NCBI GenBank assembly: GCA_965285975.1
Contig: CBDIWR010000361.1
Location: 1 to 39,660 of the forward strand
Origin: an uncultured bacterium
GTDB lineage: Bacteria; Chloroflexota; Chloroflexia; Thermomicrobiales; Thermomicrobiaceae
DNA length: 39,660 nucleotides
Direction of reading: 5' to 3'
The notes beneath the pieces are model-generated. The model made no database searches, was not told the origin of the DNA, and saw only the letters and a list, made by a program, of their open reading frames with translations. Positions 1-20,699 of the stretch are shown here, one piece after another (position 1 is the first letter of the stretch; the number at the start of each line of letters is the position of its first letter). The translations under genes were made by a program, and so were the position numbers.

Positions 1-1
1 C

Positions 2-599: not shown

Positions 600-618
600 C
601 GCTCTCTTGAAAATGAGC

Positions 619-2059: not shown

Positions 2060-2104
2060 AGTATAGTCATTTTCATCGAGAGTGGCGGGACACAGGCCCA
2101 GGGG

Positions 2105-4784: not shown

Positions 4785-4953
4785 CGCGTCATGCTCCGTG
4801 CTTCGGATCGCGGATGGCCGATGGGTCGCCCGGAAGGTGGTGGGCCGCTGAACTACGACCCTGATCTACACCCCCCGGGGCGATTCGTGGCGCGCGCCAG
4901 CGGCTTAAAAGGAGTAGTAGTGGGACGATCGTGGCTGTGAAGGGAGATCACGA

Positions 4954-5490
4954 GTGGCCACACTGACCGCATTCAAGTTCTCAACACCAACCGGTGCCGA
5001 TGAGCTGCTGGCCAAGCTGCTACAGCTGCAGTCTCAGGGACTCATCACCGTCCAGGACGCAGCTATCGTCCGCTGGCCGGAAGGGGCGAAGAAGCCCAAG
5101 ACCCAGCAGCTCACCGACCTGACCGGCGCGGGTGCGCTGTCCGGTGCCTTCTGGGGCATGTTGTTCGGGTTGCTCTTCTTCGTACCGATCTTCGGGCTGG
5201 CGATCGGCGCCGCTTTTGGGGCGCTGGCGGGGCATTGGGCCGACGTCGGCATATCGGATGACTTCATCAACCAGGTCAAACATCAGGTGAAGCCGGGCAC
5301 CTCGGCGATCTTTCTGCTGACGAGCGGGGCGGTCATGGATCGCGTGCAGGAGGCCATGAGCGGGATGCGATTCGAGATCATATCGACCAACCTCACGGCC
5401 GAGCAGGAAGCGAAGATGCGCGAGGTGTTCGCCGAGGATACCCCGGCCGCAGCGCCAGCCGACAGCGAACAGCAGCAGATGAACCCCTAA
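4954..5490 (+). CDS. DUF1269-family membrane protein
   Basis: DAAIVRWPEGAKKPKTQQL...GALSGAFWGMLFGLLFFVP...DVGISDDFI...PGTSAIF; GTG start with GGGAG RBS. Confidence 0.85.
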   Translation: MATLTAFKFSTPTGADELLAKLLQLQSQGLITVQDAAIVRWPEGAKKPKTQQLTDLTGAGALSGAFWGMLFGLLFFVPIFGLAIGAAFGALAGHWADVGISDDFINQVKHQVKPGTSAIFLLTSGAVMDRVQEAMSGMRFEIISTNLTAEQEAKMREVFAEDTPAAAPADSEQQQMNP

Positions 5491-5552
5491 CGGCCGCCGC
5501 TGGCACCCCGCCCGCCGAGCAGACGAGTCCACGCTCGGTACCAACCAGTCCA

Positions 5553-5587
5553 ATCGTGCCGCCCTCTTCCCCGAACGGCGGCACGAT
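5553..5587. terminator. Hairpin between convergent genes
   Basis: ATCGTGCCGCC (5553-5563) / GGCGGCACGAT (5577-5587) perfect 11-bp inverted repeat; no U tract. Confidence 0.4.
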
Positions 5588-5740
5588 GTACAACGGAACG
5601 ATACCCCTCACTCCCCCGATCCGCACGGCCCACGCTCCACCCGAGACACTCGGGCACCCATCGACACGAGCGTCATCCGGCTAGGACGGCAGCGGCGGCA
5701 GGATATCGGCGATCTCCCGCGCTATCGCGCTGCGCTCAGC

Positions 5741-7285
5741 TCACTGGGGCCCGGATTGCTGCGTCGTGGCTGCCGGCTCTCTAATGAGCATGGCCGTTCC
5801 AAGTCCGATCAGGGTACAGGCCCCCATGACGATCACGGCCGCAGCGTAGACCCCATTCGGGTTGCCCGAAAACGCTGTCGATACCAGCACGGAGCCGACG
5901 AGCGCCGTTCCGAGCGAGGATCCCAGATTCGAGACACTGCGCGAGAGTCCGGAAATCTCTCCCTGGTCGGCCTCGGGCCAGCTCGACTGCACGACATTGA
6001 CCGAGGAGGTCAGCATCACGCCGATACCTACGCCCATCAGCAACAATCCCGGGATGAACGTCCAATTGGGGGAGGTGGCGTTCGCCAGCCATAAGAGCAG
6101 CGCGATCCCAATCGTCGTCATGAGAAACCCCGTCCGGATCAGCAGTACCTGCGAGAAGCGCCGAGCAAGCCTGCCGGCCACGGCGGAGGACGCCAGGATG
6201 CCGACCGTGGATGCCGTGAGGACGAGGCCCGTTTCGATCGCGTTGTACCCGCGCACCGTCTGCAGAAACACGGAGATCACGAAGAAGCTACCCTGCAAGG
6301 TCAGCCACTGGAGGGTCTGGGTCACGAGCCCCAGATTGGATGTGCGGTTGTGGAACAGGCGCGTGGAGAGCAGCGGCGGCTTTCCCGCTCGCTCCACGGA
6401 GCGGATGTGCCGGCCGAACCACACCAGGAAGATCGCGCCGATGCCCATCAGCGGCCAGACCGGCGAAATGCCCCCTTCGCTGATCAGCACGATATCGCCG
6501 AAGGTGACGTTCTGCGTCGCTGTCACCCATCCGTAGGTCCCCGACTGGAGGATCCCCAGCACCACGAAGACCAGACCGACCGCGGAGAGTATGGCTCCCT
6601 TGATGTCAAAGGCGGGTTTCGGCGTCGGCACGGCGCGGCCGGGATAACGCCAGGTGGCGAGGATGATGCCACCAACGACCAGCACCTGCACCATGAATGA
6701 GGCACGCCAGCTGATCGCACTCGTGATGATTCCGCCGATGAGCGGGCCGGCAGCGGCCCCCAGCCCGGCCGCGGCGCTGACAGTCGCGAATGCCTTGGCG
6801 CGGGATTCGACATCCTGAAAGATGACAGTCAGCAGGATGTAGATCGGAGGAATCATCAGGGCTGAGCCGATCCCACCCATGAACGAATAGCCGACGACTA
6901 GCGTCGCGAGCCGCTGCGACAGGAGCGCCAGGAGCGCGCCGAGACTGTAGATGACCAGGCCGAGCAGGAAGCATCGCTTGCGGCCCCAGAGATCGGTGAG
7001 CTTGCTGCCCGGGATCATCAGCGCCGCCATGGTCAGGGTGAAGAGGGTGATCGCGATCTGGACGCCGTGTGTCGTTGTTCCCAGGTCAGTGGCGATGCTA
7101 CTGATGGCCACATTCATGTTGGAGCCGGCATAGGTGGCGATGAACTGGGTCAGGGCCAGGGGGATGAGCAGACGCCCGGCTGAAGTGCCCGGTTCGTGCA
7201 ACGCGGATGACTCGGTGCCCTGTAGGGCCTGGGTCCGACCCTCCCTGGGAGCGGGTGAAGATGGGCTGGCAGGTGTCATACGCAC
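5741..7285 (-). CDS. MFS transporter (DHA2/EmrB-like, ~14 TM)
   Basis: MFS motif A-like GSKLTDLWGRKR, GPLIGG motif C, many hydrophobic helices; start uncertain (7285 or 7279). Confidence 0.9.
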   Translation of the reverse strand: MRMTPASPSSPAPREGRTQALQGTESSALHEPGTSAGRLLIPLALTQFIATYAGSNMNVAISSIATDLGTTTHGVQIAITLFTLTMAALMIPGSKLTDLWGRKRCFLLGLVIYSLGALLALLSQRLATLVVGYSFMGGIGSALMIPPIYILLTVIFQDVESRAKAFATVSAAAGLGAAAGPLIGGIITSAISWRASFMVQVLVVGGIILATWRYPGRAVPTPKPAFDIKGAILSAVGLVFVVLGILQSGTYGWVTATQNVTFGDIVLISEGGISPVWPLMGIGAIFLVWFGRHIRSVERAGKPPLLSTRLFHNRTSNLGLVTQTLQWLTLQGSFFVISVFLQTVRGYNAIETGLVLTASTVGILASSAVAGRLARRFSQVLLIRTGFLMTTIGIALLLWLANATSPNWTFIPGLLLMGVGIGVMLTSSVNVVQSSWPEADQGEISGLSRSVSNLGSSLGTALVGSVLVSTAFSGNPNGVYAAAVIVMGACTLIGLGTAMLIREPAATTQQSGPQ

Positions 7286-7887
7286 CCTCGTCTTCTCGAG
7301 CGGATCTAGCGGGAGCAGGACGCATCACATGAAGCGTAAGGTGGGAGGCTCCGTCCAGGAAGAACTACGGAGGTGTAGCTCGGGGTCGTAACCACCGCGA
7401 TGAGGGGATCCGCTGCCGGCCGTCCGGGTGCAGAAGCGATGAGATCACTCATCGGGCAAAGCCGGCTACACCGCCCAATTGCGACCTGATGGGTGACGAA
7501 TAACCTCGCATTTCCTGTCAGGATTAAGATGATGCACGATCATGACCTAACCGGTCAGATCATCGGCACAGCGTCCCACCGGAGGAACCGCACCTTGCAC
7601 GCCGCCGCTGTGCCTGGATCGATAATCACCAGTCGGGCCGCGGCGCTTAGGTCCGAACCCCACGGGCGACTGCTACCAGGAGGTTTGTGCGGTTGAAACA
7701 CGGGCAGAGGATGCGACCGCCTGCACTCTTCAGAAAGCTGGGCAGGTGCTTGCGCAGATCGGGCCGGTTCTGGATCACCGCATAGACGGGAACTCCGGTC
7801 GACGAACATCGGGATCAGGTCCGTCCGTGGTCGCACGGCGGACGTCGCAGATTCCGTCATCGGCCGGTGACAGGGACGGAGGCCTTC

Positions 7888-9810
7888 ATGACCACCATCG
7901 ACAAAGACTCGAACCACCCACGGACGTTGCGTGGCCCACTAGGTCACGGCCAGAGCGCAGCGGCTCCCTCGCCGTTCCCGCCAATCGCCGACTACGCGTT
8001 CCTGTCGAACTGCCATACCGGCGCCTTGGTCGCTCCGGATGGGGCGATCGACTGGCTGTGCGTTCCCAACTTTGAATCGCCGAGCGTATTCGGAAGCCTG
8101 CTCGACCGTCAGGCCGGTGCGTTCAGGTTCGCGCCGTACGGCATCAACCATCCCACCGCGCGGGTCTACGAACCGGGAACGAACGTCCTGGTGACGACCT
8201 GGAAGACGCCTGGCGGCTGGGTCGTCATTCGAGACGCGCTGACGATGGGGGTTCGCGACCACGAAGATGAGGTCACAACACACACACGGCCGCCGACGGA
8301 CTACGATGGCTGTCACCGACTCGTTCGCACTGCCCTCTGCATCGACGGACGTGTCGAGATCGATCTCGTGTGCGAGCCGGTCTTCGACTACGGCCGCGTG
8401 CCGGCCGAGTGGACGCTTGTCGGGAGCAACAGACACGTCGCCGACGCCAGCGGCGCGGGACAGACGATCCGTCTCCAAACCGATCTGGAACTCGGCGTCG
8501 AGGGTGGTCGCGTTCGCGGCAGGCACGCGCTCGGCGCGGGAGATCGTGCCTACTGCGTGCTCACGTGGTCCGAAGGGTTCGCCGCTCCCGCCGACGCCGA
8601 CCACGCGGAGTTCGAGATCAGCGAGACGATTCGCTTCTGGCGCGGCTGGCTGGGCGCAGCGCGCTTTCCCGATCACGAGTGGCTGGATCAACTCCAGCGC
8701 TCGGCCCTCGCGGTGAAGGGTCTCACCTACATGCCGACCGGGGCAACGGTAGCGGCGCTCACGACCTCCCTGCCGGAGACGCCAGGCGGCTCGCGCAACT
8801 GGGACTACCGCTTCACCTGGATGCGTGACAGCACGTTCACCCTCCAGGCTCTTCACTGGCTCGCCCTCGACTGGGAAGCTGACGAGTTCATGCAATTCGT
8901 CGCGGACGTCGAGCCGAATCCCGACGGCGGTCTGCAGATCATGTATGGGATCGACGGCCGCCGAGATCTATCGGAATCGACCGTGGACGAGCTCTCAGGA
9001 TACGCCGGTGCCAGACCCGTCCGAATCGGCAATGCCGCGTTCAATCAGCGGCAGAACGATGTCTACGGCGCCGTCCTCGACTCGATCCTACTGCACACGC
9101 GGAGGAGCGAGCGGCTGCCACGAAGACTCTGGCCACTGGTGCGTGCTCAGGCTGAATGTGCCAAACGGGTCTGGAAGGAGCCGGACCAGGGTATCTGGGA
9201 GGCACGAGGGAAGCCCCGTCACTACGTGTCCTCGAAGCTCATGTCCTGGGTGGCGTTGGATCGGGCGGCGACGCTGGCGGAGATCCGGGGCGACTCGGAA
9301 CTGGCCAGGACTTGGTCCTCTGACGCCCAAGAGATCCGCGAAGACATCCTCGCGCATGGCGTAAGCGACCGCGGAGTACTGCGCCAACACTACGAATCCG
9401 ATGTGCTCGACGCCTCGACACTCCTGACAGGCTCGTTCAAGTTCTTGTCGCCAGACGACGAACGATTGCGCAACACCGTCCTCGCGATTGCGGACGAACT
9501 CACGGAAGACGGCTTCGTCCTCCGCTACAAGACTGACGAGACTGATGACGGCCTCTCTGGAAAAGAGGGCTCCTTTCTCATTTGTTCGTTCTGGCTCGTA
9601 TCCGCACTCGCGATCATCGGTGATTTCCAGCGTGCCCGCGACCTGATGGAGCGGCTCCTTCGTATCGCGTCGCCGCTTGGGCTCTACGCGGAAGAGTTCG
9701 ATGTCGCAACCGGGCGGCACCTGGGGAACTTCCCGCAAGCGTTTTCCCATCTCGCGCTCATCGAGGCCGCCGGTCGGATCATCGTCGCCGAGCGGCTGTC
9801 GGAGGTGTGA
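7888..9810 (+). CDS. Glycoside hydrolase family 15 (trehalase/glucoamylase-like)
   Basis: PIADYAFLSNCHTGALV, TTSLPE..GG.RNWDYRFTWMRD, DQGIWEARG, GLYAEE, LGNFPQAFSHLALI; ATG 7888 follows GGAGG. Confidence 0.92.
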   Translation: MTTIDKDSNHPRTLRGPLGHGQSAAAPSPFPPIADYAFLSNCHTGALVAPDGAIDWLCVPNFESPSVFGSLLDRQAGAFRFAPYGINHPTARVYEPGTNVLVTTWKTPGGWVVIRDALTMGVRDHEDEVTTHTRPPTDYDGCHRLVRTALCIDGRVEIDLVCEPVFDYGRVPAEWTLVGSNRHVADASGAGQTIRLQTDLELGVEGGRVRGRHALGAGDRAYCVLTWSEGFAAPADADHAEFEISETIRFWRGWLGAARFPDHEWLDQLQRSALAVKGLTYMPTGATVAALTTSLPETPGGSRNWDYRFTWMRDSTFTLQALHWLALDWEADEFMQFVADVEPNPDGGLQIMYGIDGRRDLSESTVDELSGYAGARPVRIGNAAFNQRQNDVYGAVLDSILLHTRRSERLPRRLWPLVRAQAECAKRVWKEPDQGIWEARGKPRHYVSSKLMSWVALDRAATLAEIRGDSELARTWSSDAQEIREDILAHGVSDRGVLRQHYESDVLDASTLLTGSFKFLSPDDERLRNTVLAIADELTEDGFVLRYKTDETDDGLSGKEGSFLICSFWLVSALAIIGDFQRARDLMERLLRIASPLGLYAEEFDVATGRHLGNFPQAFSHLALIEAAGRIIVAERLSEV

Positions 9811-9975
9811 CGTCACCTGAGCGCGGCTGAGTCAGCGGATCACGACGTAGAACGATGGACGACTGAGCCGAAGCATGATCGCGGCGAAACCATCAAAAAG
9901 GTCGGTTCCAGGACGGAGCACTCGTTGTAGACGACACCCAAGGGTGTCGTCTACAATGGTGCGCCCACCCCTGTG

Positions 9976-10521
9976 TCAGCGACTCGGGTGAGCCATCTGG
10001 TCGATAGCCGCCGTGACCGCGAGGATCACGACGTCGTTCTGGCCGGGTGAGATCTCCACGCCGTAGGTGTCTCGGAGGCGAAACCACTTCTTGGAGACCT
10101 CGGCGACCTGGTCTCGGCCTTCTCCGATGCGGTATTCGTGGTCCAGGATGTTGCCTTGCACGGCGAGATCGGGCCCGTCAGCGATCCTGACAACCCAGCG
10201 GTCACGGAGTGGTGTGATCAATGCCTTCTTCACCATCGCGACGCGTTCACCGCCAGGGCCCTCTATCTCCATACTGTCTTTAATGCGCATCATCCGCTCT
10301 TGGATCTTGCAAAGCTCATGACCTTGAGGATCCTCGAACATGAGCGTCTGGCGGATCCGCAGTGCCTTGCCGTCCACCTTGAAGACGCGCTGGCCCTGCT
10401 CATTCTCGATCCAATAGTCGTCCCCGATTGATACCATGCGCTGGCGCATCATGTAGCGATGGCCATCACCGGCCTCCGCCTGGCCGGGCACTCCGGCACG
10501 TTCCTGTCGTCGTCGAAACAT
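9976..10521 (-). CDS. LURP-one/Tubby-C-like (scramblase family) protein
   Basis: MRQRMVSIGDDYWIENEQG...VDGKALR...GNILDHEY...VSKKWFRLRDTYGVEI; GGAGG RBS. Confidence 0.85.
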   Translation of the reverse strand: MFRRRQERAGVPGQAEAGDGHRYMMRQRMVSIGDDYWIENEQGQRVFKVDGKALRIRQTLMFEDPQGHELCKIQERMMRIKDSMEIEGPGGERVAMVKKALITPLRDRWVVRIADGPDLAVQGNILDHEYRIGEGRDQVAEVSKKWFRLRDTYGVEISPGQNDVVILAVTAAIDQMAHPSR

Positions 10522-10544
10522 GGCCTACCTCCGAGTAGTGGTTG

Positions 10545-10700
10545 TCATACGTCGGCCGACTCACCGTCGGCCGTGTCGTCGCTACCGTCCGTCGCCTCTG
10601 ACCAGTCGTCGAGTGCAAGGGCCATTTCCGCCGCGGCCGACACCGCACGTGGTCCGCCGACCTGCGGCGCGACCGCGACCAACCGGCCGATGGCGACATC
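10545..10700 (-). pseudogene. 3' remnant of a second CMD-like gene
   Basis: DVAIGRLVAVAPQVGGPRAVSAAAEMALAL...* aligns by eye with TLVAIAPIVGGPRVVSSVGNIGRAL of 3562-3912; in-frame TAG immediately upstream. Confidence 0.55.
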
Positions 10701-10810
10701 CTAGTCCGCCGTGCTTAGCTTGAGGAACCGCCGGCGGTGGTAGGCGCGGGTCGTACTTCCGTGCCGCGCTCCGCCGGGGGCTCGAAGAAGGGCCACAGGG
10801 CCGGAGGCCA

Positions 10811-11449
10811 CTACGCAACAGAGAGGTGCTCCCAGCGATCTTCGGGGAGGCGGGCTTCAGCCATCCCCCGCAGTTGCACGGCCAGACCGAGGCCGGCGAA
10901 CACCGCCCAGACAAGCAGCCACCACAACGATGCATTGATGATCGCCCAGGTCGCCCCGCGCGAGAGCTGTGCCAGATCGATGCGGTTCACCACCAGCAGT
11001 ACGCCAGCGACCATGGTCGTAGCCCCGGCGAACGCGGTGCTGACGATCACGATGTAGACCGGCACGGCAAGGATCACGGCGGCGACCACGGCAATCACGG
11101 CGAAGAGGGCTGCCACGATGAACACAATCAATCCGGCATTGATGCCAAAGGCAGCCATCAACCCGGACCCGATCGACGCGCCGACCGACCCTGCCGCGAT
11201 GATCACCCCCACATACCAGAAGAGGTACGAGAGGAGCGCGAACAGCAGACCGACCACGAACCCGACGATCACGGCGGTGACGGTGCTGAAGAACCCCCCG
11301 CCGAAGACGGCCTGGACGCCAGCCGCACCGACATAGACGCCGGTGAAGAACCCCACGATCGGCAGCGTAATGAAGAAGACGCGCAAGCCCGCAAAGCAGA
11401 TGAGTGCTCCCAGTCCCAGGAGCAGCACACCGGCGATAATGTCACCCAT
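10811..11449 (-). CDS. DUF4203-like multi-pass membrane protein
   Basis: Start MGDIIAG at 11449 with GGAAGGAG RBS; CFAGLRVFFITLPIVGFF, STAFAGA; about 7 TM segments. Confidence 0.8.
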   Translation of the reverse strand: MGDIIAGVLLLGLGALICFAGLRVFFITLPIVGFFTGVYVGAAGVQAVFGGGFFSTVTAVIVGFVVGLLFALLSYLFWYVGVIIAAGSVGASIGSGLMAAFGINAGLIVFIVAALFAVIAVVAAVILAVPVYIVIVSTAFAGATTMVAGVLLVVNRIDLAQLSRGATWAIINASLWWLLVWAVFAGLGLAVQLRGMAEARLPEDRWEHLSVA

Positions 11450-11600
11450 GCTCTGACGCTCCTTCCGATCAGACATCCCGCGTCCGCGACGGACGGGCCT
11501 ACGGGGAGGCGGGCCCGGGGGTGGTCCGGGCCCACGCCCTCGAGCGACGGCGCGGGCCCTATATCCCATCCTCGACCAGATCGTAGGCTGGCGACCTCGA

Positions 11601-11999
11601 TCAGGACGCCAATTCCCGACCGTGCATCGCCAGCGCCCAGATGACGACCACATCCAGCGCGATGATCAGTAGTGACCAGAACGGGTAGTACGGGATGAAC
11701 AAGAAGTTGAGGATGGCGCTGAGCACGGCGACGATGATGCCGACGATCACGGCCCAGAAGCTACCGCGTAGGAGGTAGATGCCTGCAGCCGCGACGATGA
11801 TGCCGAAGATGAGGTGGATCCAGCCCCACGTCGTGACATCGATGCTGTAGAGGTAGTTCTGCGTCACCACGTAGAACTTGTCATCGATGATCGCCGATAG
11901 GCCGTTGAGCGCGTGAAAGACGCCTATGATGATCAGCATCACGGCGGCGAAGACGGCGATCCCCATTGCCCACTTGGGGGCCTTTTCCGATGTGTGCAT
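11601..11999 (-). CDS. 4-TM membrane protein (DUF7144-like)
   Basis: FAAVMLIIIGVFHALNGL...DVTTWGWIHLIFG...NFLFIPYYPFWSLLIIALDVVVIWAL; ATG 11999 with GAGGAG RBS. Confidence 0.8.
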   Translation of the reverse strand: MHTSEKAPKWAMGIAVFAAVMLIIIGVFHALNGLSAIIDDKFYVVTQNYLYSIDVTTWGWIHLIFGIIVAAAGIYLLRGSFWAVIVGIIVAVLSAILNFLFIPYYPFWSLLIIALDVVVIWALAMHGRELAS

Positions 12000-12102
12000 T
12001 TGACAGCTCCTCTCGTGCCCTGGGCTTCCAGTCACTCACGTCGACGGGCATCCCTTGGGGTGTCACCCGCCGAAACGAGACGCGGCGTCACCCTATCCGC
12101 TC

Positions 12103-12333
12103 TCATCCGCTGCCCGGAGAACTGACCTCGGTGCCGGCGGTCGCCGCTCCGGTTTCACCGAGGGCGGTGTCGGCCACATCGCGGCCGGCGTTGAACTGGC
12201 CGGTGATGTCTTGCGTGATGCTCTCGGTGACGACCTCGACCCCATCTTGCTGCAACTCCTTGGGCGCAGTATCGGCCGCGCACTCACGTTGAAACACGGC
12301 CACGATGACCTGGATCGGGACATCGTTAGCCAT
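12103..12333 (-). pseudogene. Internally deleted DUF1269-like remnant
   Basis: MANDVPIQVIVAVFQRECAADTAPKELQQ joined to VEVVTESITQDI; looks like the N- and C-terminal parts of the family without the central TM hairpin. Confidence 0.4.
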
Positions 12334-12455
12334 GATGCCTCTTTTGCGGTTGGTTATCCGACCCCGAAGGCTTACCTGGGGTCTGTCTCTAGCCAAGTCT
12401 AGAGGAGCCCGGTGCAGCGGGAATCAACCGGGGGGTCGTAGTCCGCGGGTGTACC

Positions 12456-12875
12456 GCCCGCGACGGCGCCGTGCTCCCGATCCTGCACCTCAATGGTTAC
12501 AAGATCAGCGGTCCGACGGCGCTTGGTCGCGACAGCGACGACGACATCCGGGCCTTCTTGCAGGGCAACGGCTACGAGGTCTTTTTCGTTGAGGGCGACG
12601 AACCCTCGCTCGTGCACCAGTCGTTCTCGGCGACGCTCGACCACTGCTACGAGAGGATCTTGGAGATCCAACGAGCGGCCCGCGAGTACGGCGTCTTCGA
12701 GCGGCCGCGCTGGCCGGCTATCGTGCTGCGCACGCCGAAAGGCTGGACGGGACCGAAGGTCGTCGGTGGTCTTCCGGTAGAAGGCACCTTCCGCTCGCAC
12801 CAGGTACCGTTGGCCAGCGTGCGCGATAACCCGGAGCAACTCGCGCTTCTCGAAGCCTGGATGCGCAGCTACTAA
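12456..12875 (+). pseudogene. xfp: Internal fragment of phosphoketolase
   Basis: [21 protein letters not shown]...[19 protein letters not shown]...[12 protein letters not shown]...LEAWMRSY*; ~140 aa of an enzyme normally ~800 aa, truncated at both ends. Confidence 0.9.
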
Positions 12876-13163
12876 GCCGTGATCTGTAATTCACGCGTCG
12901 TCGTCTGAAATTGCCTTAGTCATCTGGTCGATTGAGCCGATTGGCTGGCCACCCAGTTCTTGTTCCACTTAGCCCATTCAAGAAGGTCTCCTCTTACACT
13001 CTGTCCGATGCAGTGCATCACTTTTTGGCTTGTGTTCCTGCAGGTAATCTGCGATAGTGGCCGAGAAACCCTAATAAGAGTTTCGAGTTGCTAAGCGTAC
13101 AGGAAGGCTTAGCTTCGGCGTTATCAGCTATATGGAAGTCCCAATATCGCAAGGTGAGAATCA

Positions 13164-13940
13164 ATGGGTCACTTGCGCCTCGGTCGGTTACCACGAACGA
13201 TGCATTGGCAAGGGGTTGTTGGGCTGCTCGATGACTCGCCTGACGACATTCCCGCCGTTGCCCGAGCTACGGTTACGGCGGCCGAAGCACGCATGCGCGA
13301 GTTGTCCCGAGATCCATCACTTACCTATTGCTTCTGGATACTCACCCGCGTCATGGTCGCGTCCCGGGAGTCGGACTTCCGCTCGGCCCTCCAAGGGCTC
13401 AGTATCAAGCCTGCATCTAGTGATTCGGCGCTGGCCTTCGTTACCGAGTTATCCGAGCAGGTACGGAATGAACTCACTGCCTATCCCCAATCTGGACCGT
13501 TTGGGGAGCTCGCATCGCTCGCATTGCGTCGGGCTCTGTCCGAAACAGCTGGTGTACACGGTCGATCACTCTTCGGCAGCTCCCTCGAAGACGTCCATCA
13601 TGCGTTTCGAAGCCACTCGTCCCCCGATCGTTTCGGCGATGTGGCGCGGCGATTCTTCGGTGACTTTCTCGCGCGAACGCTTCAATTCTTCGTTGACAAG
13701 GAACTGTCAAATCACGTTGGAAGTGGGGGTCAGCTTCGCGGTATTGAGGCAAGCCGGGAGTTTTCTGCGGCTCTGGATGTCTATACACGTCAGTCGGCCC
13801 GCATCGTCGAGGAGTTCGCATCAGGATGGTATGGCAAGCACAACTGGGAGTCCCAAGGAGCGATCAGCCGTGAGGAGGCGCAAGGCTTCGTCGCAGTCGC
13901 GCTGCGCAAACTCCGGATGGAACTGGTGCGGTCGACCTGA
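13164..13940 (+). CDS. Hypothetical helical protein, QatB-like partner of the QueC-family enzyme
   Basis: 258 aa, starts MGHLRLGRLP (Gly2); stop overlaps the next ATG (TGATG 13938-13942); size and position as for qatB; homology not demonstrated. Confidence 0.75.
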   Translation: MGHLRLGRLPRTMHWQGVVGLLDDSPDDIPAVARATVTAAEARMRELSRDPSLTYCFWILTRVMVASRESDFRSALQGLSIKPASSDSALAFVTELSEQVRNELTAYPQSGPFGELASLALRRALSETAGVHGRSLFGSSLEDVHHAFRSHSSPDRFGDVARRFFGDFLARTLQFFVDKELSNHVGSGGQLRGIEASREFSAALDVYTRQSARIVEEFASGWYGKHNWESQGAISREEAQGFVAVALRKLRMELVRST

Positions 13941-16000
13941 TGAGTGTTGTGCGTGCTCTGTTTCAATGCGACTCGGCAGAGATTCCGGTGGATCTTGCCG
14001 CCCAATCCTGGGATGTCCGTAAGCCAATTAATATGAATAACAGTACTAACGCATCGCTGAACCTCCACGCCCAAGGATTCGCCGCGAAGGTTTTGACTGC
14101 CGTCCGGAACCGGGCTGCCGACTTGATACGCATTGCCTCATATGCCTATGCTGCGGATCAGGAGGTCTCACGAGGAGGTGAGACTGATGTGTACGGTAGA
14201 AAGTGGCGGCGCCAACTCGTTCTCTGTGCTCCTGTGGCGGAACCAGACTTCTGGACAGATGCCTCGGTGATCTCAGGTCTTGAAGATGTCCTGCAGTTCC
14301 TGACAGGTGACACGTGGGAGTTTCATTTTAGCCGAACTCCACGCCGCCCTGTACAGATATCCTATCCTGTCGATGAACCGGAGCTTCTTGGCCGTCCCGA
14401 CGCGATAGTACTCTTTTCAGGTGGTGCTGACAGCTTATGCCTCGCAGTCGACTCAATTGGCATTCAGGGCCGTCGACCGCTACTGATCAGCCACACACCT
14501 GCACCCCATATTAGTGCTCGCCAGCGATCCTTGGCCGATCACCTGCGGTGCAGATTTCCGGAATGGTTCTTCCCTCACGTGAACTTCTCAATCCACCGCA
14601 TGAAGTCGGAAGCAGCCGATAACAGCCAACGCTCACGGGGTTTCCTATACGCCTGTCTCGGCGCAGTGGTGGCGAGTGAACTCAGCGTATCCGACGTGTT
14701 CCTCGGGGACAATGGTGTGATCAGTCTGAATCTTCCTATCAATGGGCAGTTCGTTGGCGCCCTAGCCAGCCGAGCGACACATCCGAAGTTCCAATACCTC
14801 TTCAACCGGTTCGTTGCCAACGTATTCAGCTGTCCGGTTAAAGTCACGAATCCGCTATGGGTAAGAACACGTCCGGAGACGCTAGAGGTTCTCAATTCGA
14901 CCAATTGCGGTGATCTCCTTCAGGAAACGACATCCTGCAGCCGTGCTCGTGGGCGCCCACAAAGTTCACCGCACTGTGGCTACTGTTCCCAGTGCGTCGA
15001 TCGCCGTTTCGGCTCGATCGCCGCTGGACTCGCAGAGCATGATCTCGGCGAACGATACGGCGTAGATATTTTTACTGATCCTTTGGATCAGGGCGAACAA
15101 CGCACCATTGCTGAGTCCTACGTTCGTTTTGCCCGCAATGTGCTCCAGACGTCGGAAGACGAGATGTTTGATGCATATCCTCAGCTGTTCGACGCATTGT
15201 GTCCCGGCGATCCATCGCAAGCCGAAACTGCTCAACAGCTCGTGAGCTTACTGAAACGTCACTCCGTCAGCGTTCATCAAACGCTGACGGGTATGATCCG
15301 GCGCCATAGCTCTGAACTGGCAGCGGGTACGGTTGCGGAGACGAGTTTGCTTCGGCTTGCAGTGGGAAGTGCGCCTAGAATCGTTTCTCCGTCTGATCAG
15401 GTTGGAAACTGCATCCGCCGGGCCGGCGATACCTGGTCTGCCACCTATACGGGTCGCACGATCCAGGTAAAACACGGCAAAGGTATCGCCTACATCGCCT
15501 ATTTGCTGACTCACCCCAATCAATCCATTAGGTCCATGGATCTTGTGGCGCTCGTTGACCCACCTGCTCAGAGTGATCTGAGTCGTAGGATGAGCGCAGA
15601 GCAAGCTAAAGCAGAGGATCTGACCACATCCGATATGAATGTCCAAGATGAGTTGTTCGATGACCAGACTCGACGCCAAATCAGGACTCGACTCGCTGAT
15701 CTTGAGCATGAACTTGTGAAGGCTAGATCTGCGCAGGATACAGATCGCGTCCAACGCCTTCAGAACGAAACCCTAGACCTCAAACAATATCTAAGATCAG
15801 GTACTGGCCTTGGTGGCCGTCCTCGGCCATTCACCAGCCCGGCTGAGAATGCCCGCCGCGCGGTCTCTAAGGCGATTCACCGAGCCATGGAGACTATTAG
15901 CACCTACCATCCACAACTTGGTCGTCACCTCGTAAGTAGCCTCAAACTCGGTGCCTCTTGTACCTACTCACCAGAATTACCAACCGATTGGAACAGCTAA
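13940..16000 (+). CDS. QatC-like QueC-family (PP-loop) protein with an extra C-terminal regulator-type domain
   Basis: YAADQ, LFSGGADS, SQRSRGFLY, DNGVISLNLP, SRATHP, NPL, TTSC...HCGYCSQCVDRR zinc site; ~200 extra residues after aa ~485. Confidence 0.88.
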   Translation: MSVVRALFQCDSAEIPVDLAAQSWDVRKPINMNNSTNASLNLHAQGFAAKVLTAVRNRAADLIRIASYAYAADQEVSRGGETDVYGRKWRRQLVLCAPVAEPDFWTDASVISGLEDVLQFLTGDTWEFHFSRTPRRPVQISYPVDEPELLGRPDAIVLFSGGADSLCLAVDSIGIQGRRPLLISHTPAPHISARQRSLADHLRCRFPEWFFPHVNFSIHRMKSEAADNSQRSRGFLYACLGAVVASELSVSDVFLGDNGVISLNLPINGQFVGALASRATHPKFQYLFNRFVANVFSCPVKVTNPLWVRTRPETLEVLNSTNCGDLLQETTSCSRARGRPQSSPHCGYCSQCVDRRFGSIAAGLAEHDLGERYGVDIFTDPLDQGEQRTIAESYVRFARNVLQTSEDEMFDAYPQLFDALCPGDPSQAETAQQLVSLLKRHSVSVHQTLTGMIRRHSSELAAGTVAETSLLRLAVGSAPRIVSPSDQVGNCIRRAGDTWSATYTGRTIQVKHGKGIAYIAYLLTHPNQSIRSMDLVALVDPPAQSDLSRRMSAEQAKAEDLTTSDMNVQDELFDDQTRRQIRTRLADLEHELVKARSAQDTDRVQRLQNETLDLKQYLRSGTGLGGRPRPFTSPAENARRAVSKAIHRAMETISTYHPQLGRHLVSSLKLGASCTYSPELPTDWNS

Positions 16001-16209
16001 GGTCGGGTTTCTCCCTATTCGCGCCATTGCATGGCGCGGACGCGCTACGCATGGTCCCATGTGCACCCTTCCGTGACGCGCCTAAAGAGTAGGGACATCA
16101 ACTCGGGTCGTACGCCTCCGTGTGAGAGCGACTGAACGGTGTCAGCCGTCACCGTTCGCGACCGCTCGTCGACGTCCCTCGACAATAGGTACGGGGATGA
16201 CGAGCACTC

Positions 16210-16431
16210 ATGACTCGACAAAGACCGACAAAGTCGCTCTTGGACCAAACGCTTGAGGTTTGGCAGTCGCGATCGTCACGGGTACTTACAGGTGAAGACG
16301 CACGTGAGATCGTCGAGAATGTCAGCGGCTTCTTTCAACTCCTCCTCAAGTGGGATGCCGAGGGAAGAGTATCGCCAACGGTAGATGGGGCTGACGATAG
16401 CGAGCCGACCAGTGAGAACCGGTGGGCTTGA
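16210..16431 (+). CDS. Small hypothetical protein (73 aa)
   Basis: LLDQTLEVWQSRSSRVLTGEDAREIVENVSGFFQLLLKW, helical pattern; TGATG coupling to the next gene. Confidence 0.7.
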   Translation: MTRQRPTKSLLDQTLEVWQSRSSRVLTGEDAREIVENVSGFFQLLLKWDAEGRVSPTVDGADDSEPTSENRWA

Positions 16432-17699
16432 TGAGTCTCTGTGATGACGTCGAGAGCGACGCATGGCGGATGGTGAATGACCGGTTGGCCATCAACGAGA
16501 GTGGCGATCATAGTGAAGCGTTGACTCTCACCCCACAGGTTCCGGGCCCAACCGTGATACAGCTGCATCTTCCCGGACTTGAGGATGTTCCCCTACCACG
16601 GCGTCGACGAATGAGCAGAGCGCGTCGACAGACGGAGCAGCTAAGCCTAGATCCACTCGTGGACACCTATCTTCTGCGTTTACGCAGTCGTGGAGCAGCA
16701 GTGAAGGGGTTGCAGGCGTATCGGTATCAACTTCGGGCCGTTGCACGGCTCGCTCAGAGCGCGGCTGGACACCCCGTCACTATGGGTGAGCTATTTTGCG
16801 ACCCATCTCTCCTTGGACGAGTACTGGTTGATGACATGGCACCAAACCATGGATCTCAGTTGTCGAAGTGGACGTTGGCCCAACGGCGCTCAGCTATCCG
16901 CAGCTTCGTGACACTCATGCGCCCTGAACTCTTCGACATTGCTAGCGCGGACCCTCACTTGCTGTTGAATCAAGCACTTCAAAGCGTCGCTGTGCGCATC
17001 GGCGCCGGTTACCGATTGACCGGTGGAACCCCTCGACAGCGCGGCGGCTATGCGCCACGCAGGGACGAGGTTCAGGCGGTTCTGAAGGCCGTCTCGACCG
17101 CAGAAGGGTTCCTAGGTCCGAGAAACCTTGCATTCTACGGAATTCTCGCGGCCACAGGTTCACGAGTTAACTCGCTGCGTGCGTTGGATAGCGGAAGTTG
17201 CGTTCAACTCCTAAACGGATGCATACGCCTGTTCTTGCATGAGAAAGGTAAACACGAACCACGCGAAGTCGAGCTGGGACGTGAATTATCGTCGGCGCTG
17301 CTCACCTATCGTGACATGTTCAATGAATGCGCGGCCCAGGCCGGCTGGAGGGTAAGGATCCAATTGGGCGAGTCCGGTCTTGTCTGGCGGCAACCGGGAG
17401 GTAAAGGATGGCGCTATCACGAAATTCTGAGAACACTGCGGGCGGGTTGTGCAACTGCCGAGGTGCTGGAGTTCTCTCCACATTCCCTCCGGAGAGCCTT
17501 TGCAAGCGATGCTGCTACTCTGCTTCCCCGCCACACGGTGGCACAGGCTGGAGGCTGGAAGGGACTCGAACGCTTGGATGACCATTACATTCAGCCTCGT
17601 GAAGGAACAATCTGGTCGAAGCTCGGGTGTATTGCGGCCCAGCGAACGACGCCTGAGATCGTGAAGGTAAAGACTGATGCACCAAGTGTCCCTGTTTGA
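16431..17699 (+). CDS. Tyrosine recombinase (catalytic residues present)
   Basis: TGSR, EKGK, PHSLRR, GGW, DDHY give R-K-H-R-W-Y; ATG 16431 overlaps the previous stop. Confidence 0.85.
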   Translation: MSLCDDVESDAWRMVNDRLAINESGDHSEALTLTPQVPGPTVIQLHLPGLEDVPLPRRRRMSRARRQTEQLSLDPLVDTYLLRLRSRGAAVKGLQAYRYQLRAVARLAQSAAGHPVTMGELFCDPSLLGRVLVDDMAPNHGSQLSKWTLAQRRSAIRSFVTLMRPELFDIASADPHLLLNQALQSVAVRIGAGYRLTGGTPRQRGGYAPRRDEVQAVLKAVSTAEGFLGPRNLAFYGILAATGSRVNSLRALDSGSCVQLLNGCIRLFLHEKGKHEPREVELGRELSSALLTYRDMFNECAAQAGWRVRIQLGESGLVWRQPGGKGWRYHEILRTLRAGCATAEVLEFSPHSLRRAFASDAATLLPRHTVAQAGGWKGLERLDDHYIQPREGTIWSKLGCIAAQRTTPEIVKVKTDAPSVPV

Positions 17700-18720
17700 T
17701 CACTTTGATCGGCAACCGAAAAACCGCGCTTTTGATTCGGAGTCAGAGCGTTTACTCAAGATTTTTGCTGAGAAGAGGAGCGCAGACGGCGCACATCCCC
17801 GTTCGGTCAAGCGCGAGGTGAGTCAACTCCGATCCCTCGCTGGTGAACTTCAGGTCGAGTCTGATCTGATTTCGCTTACTGTCCTGTTCCGCGATCTGAG
17901 ATTGCTTGCTCAGGCGCTGTGCGAGCCTCGTTCGTCAATTGCGCGTTCGACGGGTCGTGTCCGCTATGTAGCCGCGCGGCGTTTCATGGAATTTGTGGCA
18001 CCACTCCTCGGAAGGGATGCCCGTAGGGATCTGCTCACGCTGGATAGCTACCTTCCGGCGGGGCGTCGGACGGCTTGGCACTCGACAGGTATTGTCGTTG
18101 CCGGTGCCCCAAGCCGCCGAAGTCGACGGGCGGTCAGCCTGGACTGGTCGCACCTCATCCAACTCGTCGATACTGCATCAACGGCAGAAACATCAGTCCA
18201 AACTATTCGCAATGTCGCACTGGTGGCGCTTCATTGCTTCAGCGGACTCCGTCCGGAGGAAATAGTCCTACTCCAGTGGAAGGACATTGCGACCGATTAT
18301 TCGCCCTTCGATGATCGTCATCACTTCAAGGTGAGAGTGAAACGTGCCGGTCGGGATCTATGGCTACCGCTTGTGTCCCCGGCCGTGAAAGCAATTACCT
18401 CGTTGGCAACCTCGTTCGCATGGCGGTCCGATCCACGGTCAGGGCCACTCTTTGAAAGCCGGAATGGAGTTGGAAGACCGTTGGGGTATCGCGCAGTCCG
18501 GATGATCCTGAAGGAGGTCTGCCGAAGGGCAGGGTTACCGGCCGTTGAGGCGATCGATTTACGTGCCGCGTTTGCGTATGGACTCCGAATGCGCGGGCTT
18601 TCCGACCACGAAGTCGCCGCTGTCCTCGGATTGGCCCAGGTTCGTAGCCTGGACCGCCTACTGCGGCGACACATGGCATTGGATGCGCAGCGCAAAGTGC
18701 GCGAGATCCTTGACCTGTGA
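17677..18720 (+). CDS. Tyrosine recombinase-like protein, apparently catalytically inactive
   Basis: SGLRPEE..LQWKDI box I intact; box II reads IDLR (no His), LGL (no His/Trp), SLDRLL (no Tyr); 23-nt overlap with the previous gene. Confidence 0.82.
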   Translation: MHQVSLFDHFDRQPKNRAFDSESERLLKIFAEKRSADGAHPRSVKREVSQLRSLAGELQVESDLISLTVLFRDLRLLAQALCEPRSSIARSTGRVRYVAARRFMEFVAPLLGRDARRDLLTLDSYLPAGRRTAWHSTGIVVAGAPSRRSRRAVSLDWSHLIQLVDTASTAETSVQTIRNVALVALHCFSGLRPEEIVLLQWKDIATDYSPFDDRHHFKVRVKRAGRDLWLPLVSPAVKAITSLATSFAWRSDPRSGPLFESRNGVGRPLGYRAVRMILKEVCRRAGLPAVEAIDLRAAFAYGLRMRGLSDHEVAAVLGLAQVRSLDRLLRRHMALDAQRKVREILDL

Positions 18721-18733
18721 GCTAACGTTATTC

Positions 18734-18759
18734 GGAGTTCGAACCCCACTGAGCCACCA
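18734..18759 (+). other. tRNA 3'-end-like remnant / possible att site
   Basis: GGAGTTCGAACCCCACTGAGCCACCA has a T-loop GTTCGAA and ends in CCA; no upstream D or anticodon arm. Confidence 0.45.
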
Positions 18760-18765
18760 TAGGTG

Positions 18766-18786
18766 TATAATGTTTTATAATGTTTT
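18766..18786 (+). promoter_or_regulatory. Tandem TATAATGTTT repeats: -10 boxes or operator upstream of the xis-like gene
   Basis: TATAATGTTT at 18766-18775 and 18776-18785, an AT-rich patch just upstream of ATG 18820. Confidence 0.6.
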
Positions 18787-18819
18787 CTATAGAAGTTGGT
18801 GGCCAGAGGTGGAGTAACG

Positions 18820-19080
18820 ATGATGAGTGACGTACATACGTATCTGCAGATACGGGATGCCGCGCGCTATTTGGGTGTGTCGACCGCGACACTACGAAAC
18901 TGGGATCGAGCCGGAAAGATACAGGCCTATCGTCATCCGGTTAACAACTACCGATTGTTCAGCTGTGACGATCTCAGGTCAATCTTGCGTCAGATTGAGC
19001 AGTCGCAGTCGAAGGCTGTTCCGGCTGGCGCTCCTTCGGGACAAGAGCACCAGACGCGTGATGAGGAGATCCGTCAATGA
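18820..19080 (+). CDS. MerR-type HTH / excisionase-like protein
   Basis: YLQIRDAARYLGVSTATLRNWDRAGKI.AYRHPVNNYRLF; GGAG RBS; ATGA overlap with the recombinase. Confidence 0.88.
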   Translation: MMSDVHTYLQIRDAARYLGVSTATLRNWDRAGKIQAYRHPVNNYRLFSCDDLRSILRQIEQSQSKAVPAGAPSGQEHQTRDEEIRQ

Positions 19081-20639
19081 GGACACGGCGAGGTAGCGGT
19101 GCACGACTTGGCTCGACTGAGCGGCGCCTAGCCGTAATCTACGCGCGTGTGTCCTCTAAAGAGCAGGAGCGAGAAGGTTTCTCTGTCCCGGCTCAGCTCC
19201 GCCTTCTCCAGGAATACGCCCGGGAACAGGGGTTCATCGTTCTTGAGGAGTTCGTCGATGTCGAAACTGCGAAACAAAGCGGTCGAACTGGCTTCGGTCA
19301 GATGGTGCGCTTTCTTAAGCGTCGATCCAACTCGTGCGGTGTGATTCTGGTCGAGAAAACTGACCGACTTTACCGAAACCTCAAAGACTGGGTCACGATC
19401 GATGAGTTGAACGTGGAAATCCACTTCGCCAAAGAGGGTGCCGTGCTGTCGGATGACTCCCGTTCATCTGAGAAGTTTATGCACGGCATCAAGGTCTTAA
19501 TGGCGAAGAACTACATCGACAACCTGTCAGAGGAAGTCCGTAAGGGCATGACTGAGAAGGCTGAAGAAGGAATCTGGCCGAGTCGCGCTCCTCTAGGCTA
19601 TCAAAATGTGGAGCGGGTTGATGGAAAGCGGGTCATCGCTCTTGACCCTGATGTGGCCCCGCTGGTTCGTCAGATCTTTGAGTGGTATGGCACGGGACGA
19701 TATTCTCTGACCGATCTTACCAAGCTAGCATCTGATGCGGGGCTTCGCTTTCGGAGGGGCGCAGAGGTGCCCAAGTCGACTGTCCACAAGATGCTTCGCA
19801 GTCCGATCTATCAGGGTGACGTTGTTTGGGGTAACCGAACCTATCCAGGGATTCACGAGCCGATCGTGTCGAGAGATTTGTGGGCCAGAGTCCAGGATAT
19901 TCTGGAGGGTCGCGCCGGGAGACATCCACGGTCACGCCGGGAGTTCGCTTTTGCCGGTCTCTTGACTTGCGGTCATTGTGGCTGTGCGTTGACTGCGGAG
20001 ATCAAGAAGGGTCGATACACCTACTATCGGTGCACCGGCTACCGCGGAAAGTGCGGAGAGCCGTATGTCAGAGAAGAAGTGCTCGAGGAGCAGTTCAGTG
20101 AGATCCTTGGTGACCTGCAGCTGGATGCTGATCTGCTTGACTGGCTGACTATGGCGCTCAAAGAAAGCTTTACGGATACGCAGCGCTTTCATGCTGAATC
20201 TATTTCTCGGCTGCGAGAGGAGCACGATCGTTTGCAGCGGCGGCTGGATGCAATGTACGTGGATAAGCTCGACAGTCGTGTCGATGAGGGAACCTATGAG
20301 CGGTTATCACGTGCTTGGCGAGCGGAGCAGGACCGGGTACTGCAGGCTATAGCGCAACACCAGGACGCGAACCAGATCTATCTCGATGACGGCGTGCGCC
20401 TCCTTAGGCTTGCGAACCGATGCCAGGAGCTGTTCGCCCAACAACCCGTCATGGAGAAGCGAAAGCTGCTCAATTTTGTACTTTCGAACTCCTCCTGGAA
20501 ACATGGTACGTTGACACCGGTCTTCCGAAAACCCTTTGATTTGCTTGTCCAGACAAAGAAAATGGCTACTCGCCCGGAGCAACAAAAAACCGCCGGAAGC
20601 CTCTCCGGCGGCAAGTATGATATTTGGCTCCCCGAGTAG
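19077..20639 (+). CDS. Large serine recombinase (integrase)
   Basis: AVIYARVSS catalytic Ser, DRLYR, APLGY, HEPIVS, CGHCG...YYRC zinc ribbon, coiled coil; ends WLPE* inside the tRNA. Confidence 0.95.
   Translation: MRTRRGSGARLGSTERRLAVIYARVSSKEQEREGFSVPAQLRLLQEYAREQGFIVLEEFVDVETAKQSGRTGFGQMVRFLKRRSNSCGVILVEKTDRLYRNLKDWVTIDELNVEIHFAKEGAVLSDDSRSSEKFMHGIKVLMAKNYIDNLSEEVRKGMTEKAEEGIWPSRAPLGYQNVERVDGKRVIALDPDVAPLVRQIFEWYGTGRYSLTDLTKLASDAGLRFRRGAEVPKSTVHKMLRSPIYQGDVVWGNRTYPGIHEPIVSRDLWARVQDILEGRAGRHPRSRREFAFAGLLTCGHCGCALTAEIKKGRYTYYRCTGYRGKCGEPYVREEVLEEQFSEILGDLQLDADLLDWLTMALKESFTDTQRFHAESISRLREEHDRLQRRLDAMYVDKLDSRVDEGTYERLSRAWRAEQDRVLQAIAQHQDANQIYLDDGVRLLRLANRCQELFAQQPVMEKRKLLNFVLSNSSWKHGTLTPVFRKPFDLLVQTKKMATRPEQQKTAGSLSGGKYDIWLPE
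20581..20611 (-). terminator. Intrinsic terminator for tRNA-Asn, encoded inside the recombinase CDS
   Basis: Minus strand CCGCCGGA-GAGGCT-TCCGGCGG-TTTTTTGTT, 13 nt after the CCA end. Confidence 0.8.
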
Positions 20640-20699
20640 GACTCGAACCTACAACCTTGCGGTTAACAGCCGCCTGCTCTACCATTGAGCTATCGGGGA
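20625..20699 (-). tRNA. tRNA-Asn (GTT)
   Basis: TCCCCGATAGCTCAATGGTAGAGCAGGCGGCT-GTT-AACCGCAAGGTTGTAGGTTCGAGTCCTACTCGGGGAGCCA forms a full cloverleaf with encoded CCA. Confidence 0.97.

Follow-up and report, generated by a model that had tools for sequence, protein, structure and literature searches.

What keeps a second, full-length recombinase gene in place directly behind an active tyrosine recombinase (YR) when the residues needed for cutting DNA have gone from it? The question is raised by two overlapping genes, here called A and B, in a stretch of 39,660 nucleotides (the window) on the forward strand of contig CBDIWR010000361.1, from a Thermomicrobiaceae assembly of 2.99 Mb (GCA_965285975.1). 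An earlier note, made from the letters of this DNA, had described the pair as duplicated YRs, one active and one without its catalytic His and Tyr, and had proposed an obligate heteromer in which a pseudo-enzyme subunit restricts the reaction to a single strand; the overlapping intact genes and all four motifs that it quoted are indeed present. Family-wide residue loss, the pairing and co-divergence of A and B, and purifying selection together indicate that B is an old, selected pseudo-enzyme and not a case of recent decay, and the two genes appear to form a real, well-supported new multi-recombinase mobile module, possibly with a new one-ended mechanism. The replacement of the catalytic Lys by Arg in B, a one-armed site, the island context of a serine recombinase and a tRNA, and a clamp-like motif are additions to what the note had seen.

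Gene A shows the features of the tyrosine-recombinase superfamily, an R-K-H-R-H/W-Y catalytic domain and a Cre/Xer fold. Its catalytic set is complete (R248, K275, H354, R357, W379 and Y389, numbered from 16422, the Y389 codon being at 17586-17588), and these residues are kept in 120, 120, 119, 120, 119 and 120, respectively, of 120 aligned homologues, which are the best 120 of 186 hits with the query included; the B alignment was assembled in the same way from the best 120 of 149 hits. The conserved part of A begins at QLxLPG (16560). Pfam Phage_integrase scores above its cut-off for both A and B (35.2 and 45.9 bits), the AlphaFold2 models of both match Xer/Cre structures, and both proteins have a helical N-terminal domain and align to Cre/Xer over ~320-360 columns. 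The C-terminus of A is predicted as the Tyr helix and a separate terminal helix, and that of B as one long, conserved helix (322-346).

The HxxR His, the His/Trp and the Tyr nucleophile by which an active recombinase is recognized are all missing from B, and what the earlier note had read in one protein, box I without the other three, is confirmed in the 120 aligned homologues. The box I Arg (R192) is retained in 117 and R296 in all 120, and the Lys position (223) is Arg in all 120. Where the HxxR His is expected there is I293, with no His in any homologue, and L319 stands at the His/Trp position, with neither H nor W in any; L328/L329 stand at the Tyr position, no Tyr occurs in 320-340, and any Tyr in 320-347 is found in two homologues, both times at the very end. 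The register derives from alignment to archaeal XerA (as far as the LG of box II) and to A, and the argument on the Tyr position is one of alignment only; by the same argument no other Tyr of B falls in the active site, since the sole conserved one, Y271 (116/120), pairs with Y332 of A, which A has besides its nucleophile Y389. Recent decay, in which close homologues should keep His and Tyr, is not what these families display (0/120 for His293).

A profile search of 1.84 billion representatives returned 106 B proteins at E up to 1e-30, and a wider set of 69 was assembled from 78 listed or reference sequences of at least 290 aa by removing nine with broken C-termini; in this set His occurs at 293 in five, Tyr at 328 in one and Tyr at 329 in none. 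Among the distant relatives, P0328, P0345 and P0348 reach ~540 aa with a C-terminal extension, and others have Tyr at the His/Trp position. Two further active-site arrangements were considered for B: a Flp-like shared site, combining the pocket of B with the tyrosine of A, was prompted by the three arginines of close B proteins and is made less likely by the 34/69 wider relatives that lack the box I Arg, and His332 as a replacement nucleophile has nothing beyond its conservation (119/120 close, 49/69 wide) in its favour. At the other end of the protein, a motif of the form Q[LIVMPAE]x[LIM]F lies within the first 25 residues of 70/97 full-length close and 18/55 wider B proteins, against 5/944 long open reading frames (ORFs) of the own genome. 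The family form is usually QLxLF, the window protein reads QVSLF, and the clamp consensus is given as Q-L-S-L-F/L in an account of its use by many transposases (PMC3971601), so that the N-terminal QLxLF of B may be described as sliding-clamp-like.

Both ORFs are uninterrupted, with 23 nt in common. A comparison of A with B by BLASTP detects no similarity (best E 1.4); hhalign aligns their family profiles over 313 columns with a probability of 99.06% (E 1.7e-18) and 20% identity and puts LFCDPSLLGRVL/LFRDLRLLAQAL and GYRLTGGTP/TGIVVAGAP in the same register, which bears out the duplication that the note had suggested from these motifs and points to old full-length paralogues. A metagenome scan gave 40 loci, to which genome searches added others. 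After removal of five near-duplicates, and counting loci with the 5' end of B and at least 150 nt upstream of it, A is the gene immediately ahead of B in 29 of 31, the two misses being a truncated A (L002) and a flank of 229 nt (L014; handles in L denote loci, those in G genomes); of the note's proposal, the part that concerns a conserved dead partner genetically coupled to A is thereby supported. Among 17 loci with both genes, A has a median pS/pN (the proportions of synonymous and nonsynonymous differences) of 0.67/0.32 and B one of 0.69/0.36, with synonymous sites near saturation, and in the ten closest of the 136 pairs the corresponding rate ratio dN/dS is 0.27-0.42 for A and 0.28-0.53 for B; together with the family census, this answers in the affirmative the check that the note had proposed, whether loss of the Tyr is conserved under purifying selection. 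The dead catalytic end is the better conserved part of B (pN 0.23 in the last 62 codons vs a gene-wide median of 0.36), and the distances of A and B correlate (rho 0.71, the pairs not being independent). No fused A-B form of 628-2000 aa was found, which is weak evidence, and an A-B read-through in G676 proved to be a frameshifted copy, not a fusion. Copies in which A is truncated, stopped or frameshifted while B remains open occur in L002, L008/L009/L023, L020 and G676 (L081/L082).

Upstream of A there is a site of the form TAC followed by TAA(G/C)CCGTGATCTG and a direct repeat, which, as far as sequence comparison goes, is likely to be the binding and cleavage site of the A-B pair. The arm recurs as TAA(G/C)CCGTGATCTGC, with a second CGTGATCTGC ~21 nt later and a 14-base spacer in most sites; the repeat is direct, with neither an inverted arm nor a conserved left half. 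The window site at 12873 is the only exact copy in the assembly. Across 20 loci examined, 13 have the site upstream of A; its distance from the conserved start of A is 65-77 nt in five of these and 1.9-3.7 kb in eight. The other seven comprise three with flanks too short, two with remnants and two (L083, G676) with none. The exact 16-mer occurs in 8/192 genomes of the order (its reversed control in 0), namely in 6/7 genomes with A or B vs 2/185 others, B having been searched in part of the 192 and kin genomes not being independent. These other two are G541 and G679, and G679 carries, on other contigs, a window-type recombinase and the passenger gene that we take to be QatB-like. Directly before the arm, 18 aligned sites read TAC in 15, AAC in two and GCC in one, a tally which both genome-site patterns favour, one of them having required AC; the triplet often belongs to runs of NAC, up to five, and nothing is conserved further upstream.

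Two arrangements of the site are unusual. In G727, two same-orientation sites (L080:4214 and 5556) lie 1342 nt apart, the inner copy without TAA, and flank one 373-codon ORF on the other strand with no Pfam match. In L085 (G671:C704:708-2365), a cut DDE_3 gene is joined to an orphan half site that has the first repeat only and lies 100 nt away from where an unrelated tyrosine integrase, beside a tRNA-Glu, ends.

The DNA to the left of the arm changes from copy to copy. In the window it comes from the interior of a phosphoketolase (XFP) gene; the stretch has 53% identity to the full XFP found in a genome of the same genus and no further copy in the own assembly. The fragment is cut at both ends, and TAC stands at its left junction too (~12450). 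In five loci the junction interrupts a Pfam domain in mid-model: XFP_N (window), HTH_28 (L005, a transposase-like frame), rve_3 (G519), DDE_3 (G671) and SBP_bac_1 (G727, on the other strand). Open frames without a cut family domain end at the site in L008, L016 and G679. Among the six copies that include the QatB-like gene, no two have the same upstream partner, and a site-only search of sequencing runs gave three contigs, two of them with further unrelated upstream DNA. For one junction the uncut state can be compared, the homologue of the G519 partner reading CAC AAC AAC ACC where G519 reads CAC TAC TAC TAC TAA CCC.

A second end was sought in several ways. In G519, synteny with five congeners resumes at ~317.5 kb, GGGGTACC near 317.85 kb matches the tRNA-Glu near 355 kb at the latter's 3' end and is a probable attL core, and the site at 347.4 kb lies inside a serine-recombinase island of ~37 kb, since the synteny edge with its core and the tRNA bound it; the remainder of the cut insertion-sequence gene was not found in 272-388 kb (116 kb searched). 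The missing part of the G727 SBP gene was not found behind the recombinase (~15 kb examined), nor was a right end or target remainder found in the window, and behind B no motif is shared above shuffles in 34 loci, except words of the promoter and coding sequence of a helix-turn-helix (HTH) gene. Most loci are short contigs, and a far right end is excluded for G519, ~15 kb of G727 and the window only; six DNA runs of other samples, with small shares, and no RNA runs were listed, and the low-coverage contigs from four of them included none across the site or the pair. The shared core in G519 looks only 8-9 nt long, at the tRNA 3' end, and ~1 kb inside the island border there is a decayed inverted part-copy of the flanking core enoyl-CoA hydratase-like gene (L115:6860-7200).

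By established chemistry, a YR tetramer in which half the subunits are dead can exchange one strand pair only, and identity is then required only beside the cut. On the reading preferred here, to which a probability of about 0.45 is given, the A-B complex would join the arm to TAC-bearing DNA on one strand, and replication would yield the junction and replace or trim cargo. This reading is drawn because the single specific arm, the shared TAC, the lost partner halves and the clamp motif all fit it. A would be the enzyme acting on the one-armed site, cutting and joining a single strand at the TAC beside it with ~3 nt of identity to the target; B would be the DNA-binding, non-cutting subunit that holds the uncut side and docks on A via its conserved C-terminal helix. 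A single strand pair would be exchanged and the junction resolved by replication, where the QLxLF-like motif would tether the complex, and over repeated rounds the cargo upstream of the site would be replaced or trimmed. The host elements would be islands put at tRNAs by the neighbouring serine recombinase, or Rep/ParA replicons. The one-armed site and the ~3 nt shared at junctions lend indirect support to the one-strand exchange that the earlier note had proposed, and a crossover requiring about three shared nucleotides is described for integrons (PMC2811028). A bolder form of the idea, in which a clamp-tethered, half-catalytic two-gene recombinase with one fixed arm would join almost any DNA at TAC and so serve, on serine-recombinase tRNA islands and plasmid-like replicons, as a one-ended engine of cargo capture or exchange, is put forward tentatively and is rather unlikely; if true, an integron-like or ISCR-like function would have arisen by duplication and inactivation, without cassette sites, a second end or an HUH enzyme.

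Several observations weigh against one-strand joining by the pair. Another main function, such as transfer or resolution, might give rise to the junctions as infrequent and irreversible by-products, and cargo deletion brings no obvious benefit. The link between A/B and the site is, as it stands, co-occurrence among kin; L083 and G676 (with A frameshifted in the latter) have A and B with no site within 4 and 19 kb, respectively, and the uncut target is known only from homologues, for two junctions. Polymerase slippage can also lengthen NAC runs, and the element's own upstream DNA is retained in L006, L034 and L037, which may represent the unrecombined state. B is intact where A is broken in L002, L008 and G676, which fits decay and also a role of B without A. 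The chemistry may moreover differ across the wider B family, since the box I Arg is kept in only 35/69 relatives and Tyr stands at the His/Trp position in 14/69.

The nearest alternative shares the one-strand cut-and-join chemistry and gives it another purpose: A would be a MOB_M-like relaxase, B an MpsB-like non-catalytic helper and the site an origin of transfer (oriT), the junctions being transfers at look-alike nick sites. It would explain a one-armed site that needs no right end and the persistence of the pair on elements with an integrase (16/27 loci) or a Rep-like gene (4/27), and published outlines offer parallels in the YR-like MpsA of SGI1 with its non-catalytic partner MpsB near oriT (PMC6414798), in an oriT just upstream of the MobK gene (PMC8152469) and in the 96% of MOB_M genes that lie near an integrase. 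It is unlikely, given that the A profile matches TcpM with an hhalign probability of 0.9% (a single TcpM sequence), that MobK, TcpM and MpsA are described as without the core-binding domain (PMC8152469) which A and B are predicted to have, that the site is often 2-3.7 kb from A, and that the island genes scanned included no coupling or secretion genes, a search which did not extend to helpers at other places in the genomes. If the pair were instead the integrase or transposase of a two-ended SE/GInt/Tn554/Tn916-like element, the site would be its left end, with the right end either distant and poorly conserved, as for the poorly conserved 3' end after long cargo outlined for GInts (PMC5385486), or lost in copies that became fixed later in serine-recombinase islands; the operon right behind a conserved end, the low-specificity targets and the stand-alone and Rep/ParA loci without another integrase nearby agree with this. 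The failure to find a right end or target remainder in the window, G519 or behind the G727 recombinase makes it quite improbable, as do the two G519 island borders, both of which fit the serine recombinase, and the intactness of A and B in most serine-recombinase loci.

The fold offers another possibility, the best family and fold matches being Xer/Cre. XerCD at cer leaves the reaction to be finished by the host, and an Xer-like resolvase of circle or plasmid multimers could likewise afford one dead subunit, would be useful to islands and plasmid-like replicons alike, and would leave junctions as mistakes; this is very improbable with a site that has no inverted arm or conserved left half, Xer scores far under their cut-offs and a different partner at nearly every copy. 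B might also act outside the synapse as a DNA-binding regulator, repressing the operon or inhibiting an A that recombines alone; MrpR of phage SPbeta is said to be a precedent, the site lies in a promoter-like place, 65-77 nt before the conserved start of A, in five loci, and B survives where A is broken. This too is highly improbable, as a homotetramer of A alone should exchange both strands on symmetric sites, and the clamp-like motif and conserved C-terminal helix of B suggest a place in a DNA-bound complex. That B is a recently decayed duplicate would account for the missing residues and nothing more, and is practically discounted by the loss throughout 120 close and 69 wider homologues and by purifying selection.

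Features of the window around the A-B pair (positions in the 39,660-nt stretch).
Feature	Position	Strand	Basis or remark
Phosphoketolase (XFP) internal gene fragment, cut at the TAC codon where the site begins	12456..12872	+	Pfam XFP_N positions 189-326 of 364
Conserved one-armed site, TAC then TAAGCCGTGATCTG (12873-12886), degenerate second CGTGATCTGC (~12899-12910)	12870..12910	+	upstream of A
258-aa passenger gene, presumably QatB-like	13164..13940	+	no Pfam, PADLOC or NCBIfam match
QatC/QueC-like passenger fused to a C-terminal domain (~residues 480-686)	13940..16000	+	PADLOC QatC E 3.6e-59
Small conserved ORF of 73 aa that runs into the start of A	16210..16431	+	homologues before A in L012, L027, G519
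A, tyrosine recombinase, core-binding and catalytic domains	16431..17699 (ORF from 16422)	+	Pfam Phage_integrase
B, full-length A paralogue without catalytic His, Trp/His and Tyr	17677..18720	+	347 aa, Pfam Phage_integrase
Tandem TATAATGTTT between B and the HTH gene	18766..18785	+	sequence; only in loci sharing this HTH type
MerR/excisionase-type HTH protein	18820..19080	+	Pfam MerR and HTH_17
Large serine recombinase, 3' end overlapping the tRNA 3' end	19077..20639	+	Pfam Resolvase, Recombinase, Zn_ribbon_recom
tRNA-Asn(GTT), island right border, ROK core gene beyond	20625..20699	-	ARAGORN

The pair belongs to a low-GC module (12873-20640) that runs from the site through the passenger genes, the small ORF, A, B and the HTH gene to the serine recombinase and the tRNA-Asn, with the G+C content (GC) dropping from ~0.63 to 0.57 at the site. 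The linkage of tRNA and ROK gene is held in 4/5 relatives, there without this island beside the tRNA. The serine recombinase is likely the integrase of the island; close relatives of it occur in 4/192 genomes of the order, with B directly upstream in all three evaluable. The HTH protein, at 24.7 bits on TIGR01764 (cut-off 28.8), is possibly a directionality factor, and the tandem TATAATGTTT is likely the promoter or operator of the HTH and serine recombinase genes and not a right end; a dif-like reading of 18766-18785 was dropped, as the tandem repeat is confined to one HTH type. No long repeats that would mark the island ends were detected within the window, and no second copy of the tRNA-Asn 3' end was found in the assembly; the left border is probably beyond the contig. 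The antisense tRNA-Asn arm at 20648-20662 reads CCTACAACC, which resembles the inferred targets, while the tRNA-Glu targets do not, and the likeness is probably due to chance. Positions 1-12870 form an accessory mosaic, mostly absent from the same-genus genome, with IS110 (645-1868), a DUF772 transposase fragment, DUF1269, MFS, GH15, LOR, TM7S3 and DUF7144, and with a short DUF1269-like remnant at ~12103-12325, judged by eye.

Between site and A, the product of the presumed QatB-like gene is named for the position of the gene ahead of the QatC-like one, and its homologues come after the site in L007, L027, G519, G653 and G679. The QatC-like product scores 205 bits on NCBIfam QatC (cut-off 280); the gene has one upstream partner, and no other Qat genes are nearby (13164-16000). 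Its ~200-aa C-terminal domain (15380-16000), which has no family match, precedes A in many loci with differing N-terminal partners and is the only part matched in L004, L006, L015, L016, L031 and L034; after its stop codon a short conserved TGTCGCGCCT-like motif stands as an operator might. In G519 (L046:15439-18421), the QatC-like gene and its partner are frameshifted, and A, B and the recombinase are intact. The 73-aa ORF has no family match in Pfam or NCBIfam.

Downstream of B, 27 loci with at least 600 nt, some of them close kin, have a serine recombinase in 16 (four types), a convergent Rep-like gene in four and unrelated genes in seven, with ParA behind the Rep-like gene in the two loci checked. 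The serine recombinase terminates in tRNA-Asn (window, G679), tRNA-Glu (G519, G653) or tRNA-Asp (L026), and recombinases that are 60-77% identical (window 19077-20699; L047:5380-7034; L049:10691-12324) nonetheless end in different tRNAs (Asn, Glu). In L003, a CRISPR-like repeat array (GGTTCACCCCCACGTGCGTGGGGAAGAC) starts at 2060, shortly behind B. The family is sparsely distributed: A was found in 6/192 genomes of the order and B in 1/401 sampled from the phylum (the own genome), and the few named homologues are all from metagenome-assembled genomes of Chloroflexota. Among 72,556 plasmids tblastn found no match for A (E 1e-3) or B (E 1e-5), and viral contigs gave none for B, the site or three distant B clades, and one weak match for A. 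A single-protein scan of genome contigs returned one locus, a 29-residue match in Pandoraea at chance level, which was discarded.

Studies of how tyrosine recombinases are limited to a single strand exchange usually rely on engineered mutants or on systems of four genes. The pair is a natural case with two proteins, a candidate site of 40 bp and a predicted target rule of 3 nt, testable in vitro and in E. coli. If cargo is captured or swapped, this would explain the mosaic islands of soil Chloroflexota and provide a low-specificity tool for one-strand DNA joining; if the pair is a relaxase, it would represent a MOB class which current profiles would label 'integrase'. Databases annotate the whole dead B family as integrases.

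Among known systems, one-strand exchange is familiar from integrons and XerC/XerD. A and B are set apart from XerC/XerD by scores of ~27-37 bits against cut-offs near 330, by the presence of A in so few genomes of the order and by a direct-repeat site in place of an inverted-arm dif, and from integrons and XerCD together by the absence of attC cassettes or an array and by a predicted heteromer with a dead subunit; the attI x attC crossover, as outlined in PMC2811028, resembles the junctions in its ~three shared nucleotides. No published description of the A-B family, its site or its hosts was found in the literature searched, which covered few subscription papers, and members may be present among the YR classification datasets that accompany PMC8138268. 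Partners with a dead YR fold are described in the accounts of Tfp (PMC10214605), GinC (PMC5385486), TnsF (PMC10293859) and MpsB (PMC6414798), Tfp and GinC being precedents for essential ones. SEs (intA-tfp-intB-srap; Idola et al. 2023, PMC10214605) and GInts (ginABCD; Bardaji et al. 2017, PMC5385486) are alike in their recombinase operon behind a conserved end and in a fold-only member without catalytic residues, and strand-biased, replication-resolved recombination has been proposed for SEs. They differ in having four genes, whereas here only A and B are conserved, followed by the HTH and serine recombinase genes, a Rep-like gene or unrelated genes, with no large second active integrase or Srap/GinD seen. 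Two ends around one split target were not found in G519, G727 or the window (the short contigs being uninformative), and the low-specificity TAC junctions and the carriage inside serine-recombinase islands are further differences. With 347 aa, B is a paralogue of its partner over the full length, whereas a filter of at least 550 aa was set for Tfp hits, and SEs are reported only from Gammaproteobacteria (PMC10214605), whereas the pair is found in Chloroflexota.

RIT trios and Tn554 TnpA/TnpB (Van Houdt et al. 2012, PMC3414803; Smyshlyaev et al. 2021, PMC8138268) share the adjacent, overlapping recombinase genes of a mobile element; according to these sources, a possible catalytic motif is retained in their proteins and RITs are bounded by terminal inverted repeats, whereas here there are two genes, one of them dead, a single arm and no consistent inverted copy behind B. 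Tsy/Tn6022 (Faure et al. 2023, PMC10293859) combines a YR gene, the YR-derived partner TnsF and a small HTH gene, and in Tn6022 an inactive YR domain serves as a DNA-binding factor; in Tsy, by contrast, both catalytic activities are described as essential. The zinc-finger architecture of TnsF is not seen in B, whose alignment has no Cys-rich N-terminus, and diverse junction partners replace a fixed target such as comM. The MOB_M relaxases (SGI1 MpsA/MpsB, PMC6414798; pIGRK MobK, PMC8152469; pCW3 TcpM; survey 10.64898/2026.01.13.699239), as far as these accounts describe them, have in common with the pair a one-strand enzyme of YR fold, an upstream cis site, a non-catalytic partner gene (MpsB) and an integrase alongside. 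They differ in that neither A nor B has a catalytic-domain-only architecture, A having a core-binding domain and B being a full-length dead paralogue and not a 98-aa domain; TcpM, MobK and MpsA are reported as mutually dissimilar (PMC8152469), and A was compared with TcpM alone, with no match. In summary, the pair lies outside the definitions of SE/GInt, RIT, Tsy and Xer systems and departs from MOB_M in one criterion, although it may work like an SE/GInt or a MOB_M system.

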